A stretch of DNA of 7,680 bases from a virus (Duplodnaviria; Heunggongvirae; Uroviricota; Caudoviricetes): positions 1 through 7,680 of IMG/VR virus record IMGVR_UViG_2671180366_000007; one strand, 5' to 3'. The first letter of the stretch is position 1, and each line of letters opens with the position of its first letter. The position numbers were made by a program. Below are positions 1-6,000 of the stretch, one piece after another.

Positions 1-3000
1 ACCGGAAGCGGTATTACGTCGTTCGCTGGGGTTGCGTGCGGAAAAAATCCGCTCAATGTACCGTGAAAGCGACATCGTACCGGGAGAGCAGACCGCCACC
101 AGCATACTGAAGCAGCGCACAAAAAATCTTGCGCCGCTGCCTCACGCCCACCAGCAAAACCCGCCACAGGAAGAGACGGTGGTCAGCATTGCCGTTGATC
201 CTGAGTCTCCGGAATCTTTCATGAAACGACCTAAACGTCGCCGCTGGGTTAACGAGAAATACACACGCTGGGTGAAGACACAGCCGTGTGCGTGTTGTGG
301 TAAGCCAGCCGACGATCCCCATCACCTGATTGGTCATGGTCAGGGCGGAATGGGGACAAAATCTCACGATATTTTCACGCTACCGCTGTGTCGGGAGCAT
401 CACAACGAGCTTCATGCGGATCCTCTGGCGTTCGAAGAAAAGCATGGTTCTCAGGTTGATTTAATTTTTCGTTTTCTTGATCACGCCTTTGCAACTGGCG
501 TGCTTGGGTAAAAGAGGTGACTGATGCTCATAGATTTGGTTTTACCTTACCCGCCGACGGTGAACACTTACTGGCGACGCCGTGGCAGCACATATTTTGT
601 ATCAAAAGCCGGGGAGCGTTATCGCCGGGCAGTGGCGCTTATTGTTCGCCAGCAGCGGCTGAAATTAAGCCTGTCCGGAAGGCTGGCGATAAAGGTGATT
701 GCAGAGCCACCGGATAAGCGTCGTCGCGACCTGGACAATATCCTGAAAGCACCGCTGGATGCGCTGACGCATGCGGGAGTGTTAATGGACGATGAGCAGT
801 TTGATGAAATCAATATCGTTCGTGGTCAGCCAGTATCTGGAGGACCTCTGGGGGTGAAGATTTACCCCATAATGCATGAAGAGCAGGTCAAAAAATGAAA
901 CTGGAAGATTTACCGAAATACTACTCCCCAAAATCCCCTTGCCTGACCGATGCATCGGCCTCAACGTCAAAAGATGCGCTGAGTATCACTGATGTGATGG
1001 CCGCGCAGGGCATGACACAGAATCGGGCTGAGATGGGGTTTTCTGCGTTCCTGGGGAAAATGGGCATCAGTATGAATGACAGGGCGCGGGCAACAGAATT
1101 ACTGGCAGATTATGCACTCAGTCGGTGCGATCGTGTGGCGGCGTTGAGAAAACTTCCGGCAGAAATAAAACCGGTAGTGATGCGCATTATGGCTACGTAT
1201 GCGTTTGAAGATTATGCCCGCAGTGCAGCGAGTAAAAAGCAGTGTCCTTGTTGCCGTGGGGAAAAATTTATTGAAAGCATAGTTTTTACAAACAAGGTCC
1301 AGTATCCGGATGGTAAGCCGCCGGTATGGGCAAAGTGTACGAAAGGTGTGTATCCGTCTTACTGGGAAGAATGGAAAAAAGTCAGGGAGGTGGTAAAAGT
1401 TGCCTGTCCGGAGTGTGGCGGAAAGGGTGAGGTTTCCACCGCCTGTAAGGATTGCCGTGGGCGTGGTGTCGCCATTCATCGTGAAGAGTCGGTAAAACGT
1501 GGTATGCCTGTTATCAGAGACTGCCAGCGTTGTGATGGTCGTGGCTGTGAAAGACTACCATCAACGGAGGCATTTAATGCCATACGCAAAGTGACGAGTG
1601 CTATCACGCTTGATACGTGGAAAAAATCAGTGAAACGCTTTTACGATACGTTGGTGGTTCGGTTTGACATTGAAGAGGCATGGGCGGAGCGGCAGTTAAA
1701 GAGGGTAACGCGATAGTGTTGTTGATTTTTCCCGAATCTGTGGTAAATTTGCTCTAACGATGGGCGTTTTATGCCTGACGTTAGAAGATTTTTTACACCC
1801 CGCCGCCTGGCGGGTTTTTTATGACTGAAATCGCGTCAGTACAGTAAACGCGCTGGTGGCGGTGAATACCTGTCTTTCAGCTTGCTGGCTTTTTCGACAA
1901 GAGTTATTGGTGTGTCACGTTAACCGGAAAAGGAAAAGACATGCTAAAACAGCAGGATATGACAGAAACCGCCAGAGTGGTGTTTAATGAATTAAGCGTT
2001 ACCGACCCGGCGACAGTCGGGGAGATAGCGCAGAATACTTACCTTTCACGCGAACGCTGCCAGTTAATACTGACTCAGCTGGTTATGGCGGGTCTGGCAG
2101 ACTATCAGTTCGGTTGTTACAGACGCCTTCCGCAGTGAAGGCTTTTTTATTTGTGGTAAATGGGCGGCTGGTGGGTGTTAGGGGCACCCACCAGCCATCT
2201 GCTCATGCGTCCGGATCACAAGCAAACCTCAGGCCCACTGCTTTGCGCAAAAGCAGAATGAGCCTATCAGAGACAGGCTTAATGATCCATGCTTAATACT
2301 GTAAAAATATCCAGTTGTGAGTTAATCAACGCCGACTGCCTGGAATTTATCCGGTCGTTACCCGAAAATTCTGTTGACCTGATAGTCACGGACCCGCCGT
2401 ACTTTAAAGTGAAGCCTGAGGGCTGGGATAACCAGTGGAAGGGCGACGATGATTACCTGAAGTGGCTGGACCAGTGTCTGGCGCAGTTCTGGCGGGTGCT
2501 GAAACCTGCCGGAAGTCTTTACCTGTTCTGTGGTCATCGCCTGGCATCTGATATCGAAATCATGATGCGTGAACGCTTCAGTGTGCTGAACCATATTATC
2601 TGGGCGAAGCCGTCCGGACGCTGGAACGGATGCAACAAGGAAAGCCTGCGGGCGTATTTCCCCGCCACAGAGCGCATTCTGTTCGCGGAACATTATCAGG
2701 GGCCGTATCGTCCGAAAGATGCCGGGTATGCGGCGAAGGGCAGTGCACTGAAACAGCATGTGATGGCCCCGCTGATTTCTTACTTTCGTGATGCGCGCGC
2801 GGCCCTGGGGATAACGGCAAAACAGATTGCAGATGCCACAGGAAAGAAAAACATGGTGTCGCACTGGTTCAGTGCCAGTCAGTGGCAGCTACCGAATGAA
2901 AGCGATTATCTGAAATTACAGGCGCTGTTTGCCCGGGTGGCAGAAGAGAAGCATCGGCGTGGTGAACTGGAAAAGCTCCACCACCAGCTGGTGGATACGT

Positions 3001-6000
3001 ATACCTCACTGAACCGGCAGTATGCGGAGCTGCTGAGTGAATATAAACATCTGCGGCGGTATTTTGGCGTGACGGTGCAGGTGCCGTATACCGATGTGTG
3101 GACGCATAAACCGGTGCAGTTCTATCCCGGGAAACATCCGTGCGAAAAACCGGCAGAAATGCTGCAGCAGATAATCAGCGCAAGCAGTCGTCCGGGTGAC
3201 CTGGTTGCAGATTTTTTTATGGGCTCAGGTTCAACGGTAAAAGCTGCACTGGCGCTCGGGCGTCGTGCGATTGGCGTTGAACTGGAGACCGGACGTTTTG
3301 AGCAGACAGTCAGGGAAGTTCAGGATTTAATCGTTTGAAACGGATGAGATTGCAGAATTAATTACGCACCATTATTATTCTGCTCCCGGCCCTTTAGCTC
3401 AGTGGTGAGAGCGAGCGACTCATAATCGCCAGGTCGCTGGTTCAAATCCAGCAAGGGCCACCATCACAAACCGTCATTAGCTTATCAGGAAGAGCAGACG
3501 ACACGATAACAGGGTTGTTGGTGCGGGGGCGGGTCCCCGATGGCGGTCCATTATCGGTATTCAGCGTTGTTAGCTCAGCCGGACAGAGCAATTGCCTTCT
3601 AAGCAATCGGTCACTGGTTCGAATCCAGTACAGCGCGCTATATTCATTCTTCCAGATTCCTTCCGGCAGAGCCTTATACTGAAATATACCTGGCTCAGGA
3701 TATTGTTGAAAATATTTTATGTTTGTCAAAAATAAAAGTTCTGTTAAGTATTGATTGAGTGTTTGTTATACGGTCTAATGGTTTTTTCAGCATTAAATAT
3801 TTATCATTCATATGGTGTGGGTAGAGTGAATATTGATGAGGCGTCGGGGTGTTTCATCCTTAGGCAGCGTATTGATATAGTCAATGCAGGACGAGCAAAG
3901 GCCTTCAGCCGTTTGACAGTTTTGTTCTGTACTCCTGATCGTCTTTCGGGAAGAGACGTTATTATTCTGAATAGTGATGCTATACAGAGGGTTTGCGATG
4001 AGTTCATGGTTGCTAATTCAGAATTATTTGCTCTTGTTCAGGAGTACAACAGAATAGCCAGGACCTGTGGTATGGATGAACTTCGGATTACTCATCTGGG
4101 GTAGATACATATCTGGATTATCACTTGTTACGGTAAAAAGTGATTGCTTACTGTTTTTGTGAGTGGCATTGCAGCAGCCGGATAATGTCAGTGCTGGCTG
4201 ACGGTGTGCTGGTGGCGGGTGTGGTGGTTGTTGCTTTCCCGTTGCTGAAAAAGAAAACGCCAGACTGTTAGCCGGGTATCAGTTAGCGGGAGAAATTTTT
4301 AAATACTTCACAATTCAGGCGGTTGACTGTTGTCTGGTTTGCGGGGAGTTTGTTAAAAGAAACTGGCATGGTGAATCCCCCTGTGCGGAGGGGCAATCAG
4401 CGAGTAGGTATATGGGATAATCGCGGATTCAGGTGCTGGTACTGAATTCACCGGGAGGCACCCGGCACCATGCAATGGCACATAGCGCCACTCTCCAGCC
4501 CCTCTCCGGAGGGGCTGTTTATATTGATTTTGTCAGATGTGAGTAAACTCCTTATGGACTTTGTTGTTTTAGTCCATAAGGACATATTTGCAGAGTGCAA
4601 CGGTTATTAAAGCATTCATTCAATACGTTATCTGTATTTGTAGGACATTCCTGGCTGTTTTTGATTAAATTCCAGAATGTTTTATTGAATGGTACTACGT
4701 TGTAAATGGTTACAGGTAGCACTTTGTTATTGAGCATGATACCTGTGTGAGTCAGTGTAAATATACTTTCAGGAGGTAAGAAAGCATCCGATTGATACCA
4801 GATTATTAATTTTATTTTACTCCATATGACTGAAAAAGATATTCCGCATGATGGCTGGATAACTGTATCAATCACAATCCACTTCATTTAGCTTCCTTGT
4901 TTATGCCTTGCTGGTGATGTTCTGAAAAGTATAAATGATATTTTTGAATATAAACCATAGAGCAGAATTATTTTTCTGATGTTGTTTATTGTTTATTTAA
5001 ATGCAGGGTGGTTTATATCTCGTCTTGTAGTTTATCCATGCATATCTGCTTGATGATCAGGTTTCTATTTAAGGTATGGTTTTGTGTTTTTTCTGTGTTA
5101 CATGTCTGGTATTTTAAAGAATTATTTTTCAGATGGTGGAAAGAACCATGGCATTTAAACACTATGATGTTGTCAGGGCGGCGCCGCCGTCAGATCTTGC
5201 GGAAAAGCTGACACATAAACTGAAAGAGGGCTGGCAGCCGTTTGGTAGTCCGGTGGCCATAACCCCTTATACCCTGATGCAGGCGATTGCAGCAGAAGGT
5301 GATGTGGTGGTCAGTGGTGCAACTGAGCCCGAGTGATACTACGTCATCGTACTGGCCCGGCATTCCAGGCCATAAAAGACAGTCTGGCAGTGGGACTAAA
5401 TGTACTGACGCTGACGGATATTACCAAAAATGCAACGTATGGCGTTGAGATAGAAAGTCTGGTGCTGGAGATAAATGCACCGGCATCATCATAAAAAGTG
5501 AGCCAGTCAAATGGAAGGTATCGTTAAACTCACCGGTAGTGTCAGTGGGTCGTCTGAGATGCCTGCATGAGTTATCAGAGCCATCAGTACTTAACTGGTG
5601 GCTTTTTTTATTGTTGTCAGCTTCCGGATAACGGGAGACGGGGTATGTACCAGATGGAAAAAATCACAACAGGTGTGTCATACACCACGTCAGCGGTGGG
5701 AACGGGCTACTGGTTACTGCAGCTGCTGGACAAAGTCTCTCCGTCCCAGTGGGTGGCAATCGGTGTGCTGGGGAGTCTGCTGTTTGGCCTGCTGACGTAT
5801 CTGACTAACCTGTATTTCAAAATCAGAGAGGACCGTCGTAAGGCGGCGCGGGGAGAGTAAAGCGATGAAGAAAAAATACGAACTGGTTGTTAAAGGGATA
5901 AATAATTACCCGGATAAGATTACTGTTACTGTGGCACTGGAAATTGGTGGGTATCCGTCACTGTTGTTGCCAGATGTGGCGATTAGTCTTGACCGTACTG

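Follow-up and report, generated by a model that had tools for sequence, protein, structure and literature searches.

The DNA analysed here is a stretch of 7,680 nucleotides (positions 1 to 7,680 of the IMG/VR virus record IMGVR_UViG_2671180366_000007, Caudoviricetes), called the window below, and it represents the late-control and lysis region of a lambdoid prophage (7.68 kb). The subject of this study is a cassette behind the antiterminator gene Q, in which a small winged-helix open reading frame (ORF) is followed by a 150-nt spacer and by the gene of an orphan N6-adenine methyltransferase of the M.EcoGI/M.EcoGII family. The spacer very probably specifies a real structured cis-element, a leader RNA of 135 nt. 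The ORFs, the terminator, an inverted repeat and a near-palindrome reported in a preliminary description of this DNA are all present at the coordinates below. The features of the cassette and its control region, all on the + strand, are as follows.

895-1716, +, late-gene antiterminator Q (PF03589 Antiterm, 169.7 bits; named 'antitermination protein' in the identical RefSeq record)
1722-1749, +, pR'-like late promoter read from the sequence, with TTGATT, a 16-nt spacer and TGG-TAAATT (TTGATT-16-TGGTAAATT)
1799-1820, +, tR'-like intrinsic terminator, a G+C-rich hairpin CCCGCCGCCTGGCGGG (1799-1814) followed by TTTTTT
1881-1918, +, conserved box between tR' and the small ORF, CTTGCTG ... CAAGAGTTATTGGTGTGTCAC
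1941-2138, +, winged-helix ORF of 65 aa (phrog_331)
2125-2148, +, terminator-like hairpin (2125-2142) with a T-run, overlapping the stop codon of the small ORF
2157-2291, +, structured leader RNA of 135 nt (covariance model R1, 124.5 bits in the window)
2289-3338, +, orphan beta-class N6-adenine methyltransferase ORF of 349 aa (M.EcoGI/M.EcoGII family)

The 349-aa product matches PF01555 N6_N4_Mtase over residues 29-340 with 147.8 bits (cut-off 26.7), and in its translation DPPY occupies residues 35-38 and FMGSG residues 310-314. This is the beta-class order described for the M.EcoGII family, namely N-terminal DPPY, a central target-recognition domain and C-terminal FxGxG (PMC5778455). M.EcoGII is a 349-aa beta-class enzyme from a prophage of E. 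coli O104:H4 (C227-11) that methylates adenine in any context in DNA and RNA, including single-stranded RNA in vitro, and that is silent in the lysogen and deleterious when constitutive (Murray et al. 2018; PMC5778455). The window protein shares no fewer than 330 of 349 residues (~95%) with the M.EcoGII sequence of the machine-read Table S1 in PMC11551740. This is a lower bound since that copy of the table has visible reading errors, and all differences fall between residues 103 and 324. For comparison, M.EcoGI and M.EcoGII have 333 of 349 residues in common, and both resemble the window enzyme in length, beta-class order and occurrence as prophage-borne orphans. Judged by homology, the window gene is almost certainly a prophage copy of the characterised non-specific M.EcoGII type, an enzyme that is already known. 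The target site, formerly described as unknown, can be replaced by an expected specificity of none, given the ~95% identity to an enzyme of any-context activity (PMC5778455). Weighing against this, about 17 of the differences from M.EcoGII are real and lie in the target-recognition region (residues 148-278), so that the non-specificity of the window allele is an assumption.

The enzyme is also an orphan, as published and as had been supposed for the window. The annotation of the identical RefSeq record shows no restriction endonuclease gene in the 12 kb to each side, and none was seen in the phages SfV, mEp460, phiKO2 and N15. The M.EcoGII family has been described as very large on E. coli prophages, with phage 1720a-02 named as carrying a very similar enzyme (PMC5778455). 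Compared with the window, 1720a-02 is 94.5% identical over 1.6 kb and 98.7% identical over the spacer. The M.EcoGII publication describes neither the upstream ORF nor the leader (PMC5778455).

In an alignment covering Escherichia, Salmonella, Kluyvera, Klebsiella, Citrobacter, Buttiauxella, Mixta, Mangrovibacter and others, the spacer shows higher conservation than the coding sequences that flank it. RNAalifold predicted five helices (Fold 1), and the leader of the window has a folding z-score of -5.9. The helices of Fold 1, with the percentage of alignment cells paired and the compensatory changes found in each, are given here.

2161-2237, +, P1, UGGGC (2161-2165) with GCCCA (2233-2237), closing a three-way junction that holds P2 and P3; 99.4% paired; compensatory changes in loci L024 and L234 and in Aeromonas phages
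2166-2196, +, P2 hairpin, 2166-2177 with 2185-2196, 12 bp, 100% complementary, 7-nt loop; compensatory changes in 10 of 12 pairs
2198-2226, +, P3, 2198-2207 with 2217-2226; 75.5% paired; compensatory changes in 9 of 10 pairs
2238-2256, +, P4 hairpin, the near-palindrome CTGCTTTGCGCAAAAGCAG; 92% paired; compensatory changes in all 6 modelled pairs
2259-2281, +, P5 hairpin, 2259-2265 with 2275-2281, just 5' of the start region; 83.6% paired; compensatory changes in 4 of 6 pairs

Across 32 diverse sequences, compensatory double changes were found in 32 of the 39 pairs of Fold 1. Overall, 87.8% of the cells are paired, as against 31-40% when the partners are slid by one to three columns, and the covariation score is 0.354 compared with at most 0.086 in these slid controls. 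A covariance model built from 22 enterobacterial sequences finds the leader at exactly this position wherever the methyltransferase is at least ~62% identical, with scores of 63-163 bits. In a search of 515 kb with this model, some 70 of 75 sources were positive, only at this position and with no convincing false positives. The hairpins seen earlier in the spacer are therefore not products of chance, since dozens of loci across many genera preserve them by compensatory changes. Two points weigh against taking these figures at face value. Fitting the structural alignments to the model inflates the pair counts, and much of the covariation goes back to a small number of deep lineage splits, not to many separate events. 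RNAalifold alone, independent of the model, recovers P1, P2 and P4. When all families were aligned with MAFFT by sequence alone, the outcome of RNAalifold was poor, and the covariance model was needed to align the stems.

The leader appears to be new. Rfam 15, searched over the whole window at E<=1, gave no + strand match over the spacer (2139-2288), the sole overlap being a minus-strand P26 match with E=0.6, and a limited literature search found no described leader, riboswitch candidate or regulator of M.EcoGII. The prophage small RNAs (sRNAs) AgvB, AsxR and StxS RNA were considered and set aside, having no Rfam match here, and the text of PMC4104026 contains no methyltransferase. The rRNA methyltransferase of Stx phages (PMC10810198) is a different enzyme of the MT-A70 type with a DPPW motif, encoded by gene gp5. 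Coding ORFs within the spacer (a 60-aa ORF at 2114-2296 and an AUG at 2160) were likewise rejected, as their peptides are unrelated in length and sequence among relatives and 1-nt indels are found.

The small ORF and the palindromes had been thought to form a controller-like or PapI-like switch, in which the winged-helix protein, in the manner of a C protein or of PapI, would bind two palindromes as DNA operators and set methyltransferase transcription. The DNA-binding type of fold of the small protein speaks for such a controller, as do the near-perfect palindrome that P4 forms in most relatives and the tight linkage of protein and spacer. The two palindromes are, however, P2 and P4 of a + strand RNA, embedded in long-range helices, and their stems tolerate G-U pairs and drift in sequence with pairing kept, even under the same protein type (L121 versus L157). 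On the other strand or in a DNA operator these G-U pairs would be A-C mismatches, so their abundance assigns the RNA to the + strand and excludes a minus-strand RNA, a DNA cruciform and a DNA operator. Moreover, pairs about 70 nt apart covary, a sequence scan found no sigma-70-like promoter in the spacer 5' of the methyltransferase, no restriction gene is present, and the protein is a bare winged helix and not an Xre-type C protein. The DNA controller is thus considered very unlikely. Restriction-modification systems with C proteins share with the window a small protein of DNA-binding fold beside a methyltransferase and palindromes nearby; they differ in that the window has no endonuclease, in that its palindromes lie downstream of the small gene and act as RNA helices, and in the fold of the protein.

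P2 carries the Chi octamer on both strands, and this double Chi had been singled out as a functional feature. Among relatives the sequence of P2 varies widely (GGCUGGUGGGUG/CACCCACCAGCC, the Proteus-type GACUGUAAAAGUG/CACUCUUACAGUC, GACAGUGAGGAUG/CAUCCCCACUGUC, GACCGAUGAGUG/CACACAUCGGUC, GGCGUACAUAAUG/CAUCGUGUACGCC and others), and Chi is therefore incidental to P2. It does not account for the conservation of the inverted repeat, since in most genera the 3' arm carries another sequence, and neither arm is Chi in the Proteus-type, Aeromonas and N15-type versions.

Beside Fold 1, the leader can adopt a second arrangement (Fold 2) composed of two further helices, which are mutually exclusive with parts of the first.

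2160-2206, +, AltA, AUGGGC (2160-2165) with GCUCAU (2201-2206); excludes P1 and P3; 90.6-96.8% of cells paired
2213-2288, +, AltB, GGAUCA (2213-2218) with UGAUCC (2283-2288) and AAGC (2220-2223) with GCUU (2277-2280); excludes P3 and P5; core ~95% paired

The extension of AltB shows compensation at the level of the families (columns 70/142 with GC 30 times and AU 26 times, columns 72/139 with AU 32 times and GC 25 times). Minimum-free-energy folding gave the arrangement with AltA and AltB for 10 of 13 representatives, and the predicted energy of Fold 2 lies below that of Fold 1 in 20 of the first 23 rows compared and in most Enterobacterales members; for the window itself, the computed energies are -62.7 kcal/mol with AltA and AltB and -52.1 kcal/mol for Fold 1. 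The most telling observation in favour of two folds comes from the Aeromonas phages and L234, where the 5' strand of P1 has become GUGGC and both of its partners, the 3' strand of P1 and the 5' strand of P3, have become GCCAC. On computed structures, AltB pairs positions -1 to -6 and -9 to -12 directly before the AUG. The methyltransferase ATG at 2289 has no Shine-Dalgarno sequence within 12 nt, and the same holds for every member of the family examined from Enterobacteriaceae and Morganellaceae. Two mutually exclusive conserved folds would work like a translational switch whose default state is OFF. On the other side, AltB is weak or different in PY54, phiKO2 and VHML, whose 3' part differs, and the OFF fold is accordingly well supported only in Enterobacteriaceae, Morganellaceae and near relatives.

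A short hairpin of the ACUGU ... ACAGU type is also predicted at about 2296-2320, a few nucleotides past the methyltransferase start, in nearly all representatives folded. It may be a part of the regulatory structure or a mere reflection of conserved N-terminal codons.

The best explanation for the cassette, which we hold to be somewhat better than an even chance, is that a toxic enzyme expressed late is gated translationally by a bistable leader. By analogy with lambda and the Stx phages, transcripts from the pR'-like promoter in the lysogen would stop at tR' (1799-1820) and leave the cassette silent. Upon induction, Q-modified RNA polymerase would pass both tR' and the hairpin at 2125-2148, and the read-through transcript would carry, besides the winged-helix ORF and the 135-nt leader, the methyltransferase gene, both tRNAs and the lysis genes. 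On this transcript, the more stable arrangement of AltA and AltB, with the start region paired, would represent the OFF state, whereas the P1/P2/P3 junction with P4 and P5, with the start region single-stranded, would represent the ON state; the structures derive from covariation, and the functions are proposed from them. Once made, an enzyme of the M.EcoGII type would be expected, from the ~95% identity, to blanket progeny phage DNA with N6-methyladenine in any context. Such methylation would blunt adenine-methylation-sensitive restriction, and the enzyme would be toxic if constitutive. It has to be set against this explanation that Q dependence, late timing, translational gating and the role of methylation are all inferred computationally. 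That the leader gates translation is, on its own, slightly favoured.

In the window, the first candidate for a factor stabilising the ON fold is the 65-aa winged-helix protein, which would play the part that Com has for the mom mRNA of phage Mu. Its tight linkage to the methyltransferase in lambdoid prophages speaks for it, as do related genes just ahead of the leader and methyltransferase in the phages of the N15 type. Com is a translational activator of mom, a toxic adenine-modifying gene. The winged-helix protein is ranked first in the window because small-protein translational control of this kind recurs for such enzymes, and its role as effector of the leader is nonetheless only a tentative proposal. 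Two observations weigh against it. The leader occurs without any winged-helix gene in L197/L198, VHML and the Aeromonas phages, and the phages of the N15 type place that gene before the late promoter, in another transcription unit. The protein can therefore not be the universal effector of the leader. Given leaders that lack this neighbour, the ON trigger could instead be a small ligand or feedback from the methyltransferase, and these are serious rivals because the enzyme is the only universal partner of the leader.

In a riboswitch, the P1/P2/P3 junction and P4 would form the aptamer, AltA/AltB would be the expression platform, and the winged-helix protein would have an unrelated job. The architecture is that of a translational ON riboswitch, with a conserved junction closed by P1, covarying stems, a competing anti-P1 helix, a downstream helix occluding the ribosome-loading region and a 3' platform that varies by phage group; the computed structures thus contain both a conserved structured aptamer and an alternative expression-platform pairing. 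A riboswitch also agrees with the persistence of the leader in loci that lack the winged-helix gene or have com instead. On the other hand, no known class was matched in Rfam 15 at E<=1, the ligand cannot be inferred from sequence (S-adenosylmethionine or S-adenosylhomocysteine being the obvious guesses), and the leader is tied to one phage enzyme family, while most riboswitch classes serve several metabolic genes. We regard a riboswitch as unlikely. Equally improbable is the broader idea that the leader belongs to a new class of ligand- or modification-sensing switch, which would turn on a genome-wide adenine methyltransferase upon a specific signal; this could be the metabolite S-adenosylmethionine or S-adenosylhomocysteine, or N6-methylation of the leader by the enzyme.

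A further alternative dispenses with a switching factor altogether. The leader would simply keep translation of the toxic enzyme low, would time it through co-transcriptional folding, or would sense the enzyme through binding or through methylation of its own mRNA. The greater predicted stability of the OFF fold is in line with this alternative, as are the in vitro activity of M.EcoGII on single-stranded RNA (PMC5778455) and the fact that the methyltransferase is the one partner common to all leaders. Nevertheless, the ON fold is conserved with compensatory changes of its own, which argues that both states are used, and an arrangement lacking any switching factor is judged rather improbable.

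Returning to the translationally gated enzyme, the closest functional parallel is com-mom of phage Mu, in which a toxic and promiscuous adenine modifier is made late, a small gene (~62-65 aa) stands immediately upstream and an mRNA structure masks the start. The last of these has its counterpart in the conserved AltB, computed to occlude the start of the modification gene. The two systems differ in that Com is a zinc ribbon and com overlaps mom, while the small protein of the window is a winged helix and a 135-nt leader lies between the genes. There is no homology of protein, enzyme or RNA between them, and an activator role of the winged-helix protein is suggested by analogy. PMC3299994 and PMC6483171 describe Com-linked non-specific adenine methyltransferases that replace mom in Mu-like prophages. 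Hin1523, Hia5 and Nma1821 (Drozdz et al. 2012; PMC3299994) are non-specific adenine methyltransferases behind a com homologue and resemble in this arrangement the order seen in Aeromonas phages below; no leader RNA of the window type has been reported for them. At the level of transcription, the cassette resembles lambda pR'/tR' and the StxS element of Stx phages (PMC7547250) in having Q, a constitutive late promoter and an immediate terminator upstream. The StxS element ends at the terminator, and the window leader lies ~340 nt further downstream.

The cassette is widespread. Of 5426 complete E. coli genomes, 2717 contain it; the median copy number is two and the highest nine. The methyltransferase is one of the commonest prophage accessory genes in E. 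coli. In addition, 42 phage records carry it, mostly Stx2 phages in which it adjoins Q and tRNA genes, and in several of these it lies between Q and stx2. In SfV, mEp460 and phages of Morganella, Providencia and Hafnia, the elements follow one another as Q, terminator, small ORF, spacer, methyltransferase and lysis genes. The order late promoter, terminator, leader, methyltransferase, terminator and holin is found in phiKO2 and N15; PY54 has the same order, its promoter and terminators being unannotated and the terminator before the leader having been read from the sequence. The placement of the gene pair as the first behind a Q-dependent terminator, proposed for the window from the outset, is thus preserved in functional phages.

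The leader family extends well beyond the Enterobacteriaceae. Distant loci fetched with the Morganella and Aeromonas enzymes, together with named phages, add Proteus-type, Morganella and Providencia prophages, Hafnia phage yong2, the phages PY54, phiKO2 and N15, Vibrio phage VHML and Aeromonas phages. In the linear-plasmid prophages N15, phiKO2 and PY54, the leader stands directly after the late-promoter terminator and before the methyltransferase, at the following positions.

960-1081, leader in N15 (locus L247)
1371-1503, leader in phiKO2 (locus L241)
1370-1503, leader in PY54 (locus L242)

In N15, ~240 nt separate the leader from the annotated start of gene 52 downstream, which points to a possible annotation error at this start or to possible damage in the gene. 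In the Aeromonas phages (L185, L186, L190-L192, L234 and L246), the order is a diverged leader, com and a methyltransferase that is 53-55% identical. Here a homologue of Mu Com (26.8 bits for PF10122, cut-off 22.9) stands in for the winged-helix gene; the terminal AUG of the leader is the start codon of com, in the place of the methyltransferase start, and com overlaps the methyltransferase start. The Com homologue was found only in these Aeromonas-phage relatives, and the small ORF of the window has no match to PF10122.

Several natural variants were also recorded. In L118 the small ORF is deleted together with the first (5') two-thirds of the leader, and the enzyme gene is intact; L019 has kept the leader and a decayed small ORF and has lost the enzyme. 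L176 combines a shortened leader with a normal ribosome-binding site (Shine-Dalgarno) and a GUG start, and L022 has a stop codon inside the small ORF.

The 65-aa product itself has the fold of a generic minimal winged helix and belongs to PHROG family phrog_331, of the function-unknown class. It has an AAGGA ribosome-binding site and is 41-98% identical across Enterobacterales, the most conserved stretch being the third helix (CQLILTQL.MAGL). The name that RefSeq gives to the ORF, TrmB family, is not borne out by PF01978 (17.3 bits, below the cut-off of 25.6). Among 24 loci drawn from different genera, 22 have its gene directly upstream of the methyltransferase, as do 75 of 76 viral contigs, and the spacing is constant. 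In the linear-plasmid phages, PY54 ORF59 falls in phrog_331 with 93 bits, and N15 gp51 is 72.6% identical to phiKO2 Gp51, which is weak against the winged-helix profile (E = 0.0016). The genes of all three lie just upstream of the unit of leader and methyltransferase.

The element at 1722-1749, which we take to resemble lambda pR', scores below the 9-of-12 threshold of the promoter scan and is thus a putative promoter. The hairpin and T-run equivalent to 1799-1820 are kept in related loci and annotated as a terminator in SfV, phiKO2 and N15. The box at 1881-1918, with the consensus CTTGCTG ... AGAGTTATnTGTrTGTCAC, is kept in alignments from E. coli to Morganella and only where the winged-helix ORF is present; it may serve as a promoter, an operator or an mRNA leader. 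The stem of the hairpin at 2125-2148 covaries in Enterobacteriaceae (GCCTTC/GAAGGC, GCCTCC/GGGGGC and GCTGCC/GGCAGT), and Morganellaceae versions are without the hairpin.

Enzymes of the M.EcoGII family are widely used as laboratory reagents. For the question of how phages silence and then release such a toxic enzyme, a strongly covarying two-state leader, if the present reading is true, would offer a concrete and easily testable mechanism. The leader occurs in some of the best-studied temperate phages, including N15, SfV and Stx2 phages, and the presence of a winged-helix gene, a Com homologue or neither before one enzyme family provides a natural comparison for the gating of DNA hypermodification. 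Were a sensing switch to prove true, it would operate in temperate phages of Enterobacterales, Aeromonas and Vibrio and in about half of the complete E. coli genomes. Additionally, in several Stx2 phages the late transcript carries the cassette behind Q and ahead of stx2, so that the terminators and structures of the cassette may affect toxin expression.

The remaining features of the window are listed below, with the strand where it is recorded.

32-511, DUF968 gene
524-898, RusA gene
3388-3638, +, two tRNA genes, with anticodon CAU at 3388-3463 (tRNA-Ile per PGAP) and tRNA-Arg UCU at 3564-3638
3751-4104, +, 117-aa ORF (phrog_2873, 234 bits), without annotation in the identical RefSeq record
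4552-4887, -, IraM-like anti-adaptor gene
5133-5336, +, DUF1737 ORF, an incomplete pseudogene per RefSeq

The IraM-like gene is followed by genes for a holin, DUF1327, a lysozyme and Rz. E. coli strain 300709 carries a stretch identical to the window, and the prophage around it looks decayed, with dicB, hokD and truncated tail genes; the DUF1737 pseudogene and the truncated tail genes further on suggest that it is defective. The tRNA pair stands directly 3' of the methyltransferase, an arrangement also found upstream of stx in Stx phages, and the CAU tRNA is probably a lysidine-modified isoleucine tRNA. Between the tRNA genes and the IraM-like gene sits a full-length Rfam match to the sRNA STnc100 (4337-4526, +, 132 bits against a gathering score of 47), and a fragment of STnc100 also occurs upstream of the leader in L197. 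Furthermore, the Chi octamer GCTGGTGG occurs nine times in the 7.68 kb, compared with 0.35 expected from shuffles, at 1852, 2167, 2987, 4208 and 6678 on the + strand and at 96, 148, 2188 and 2981 on the - strand. An overlapping double-Chi palindrome, CCACCAGCTGGTGG, lies at 2981-2994 within the methyltransferase gene.

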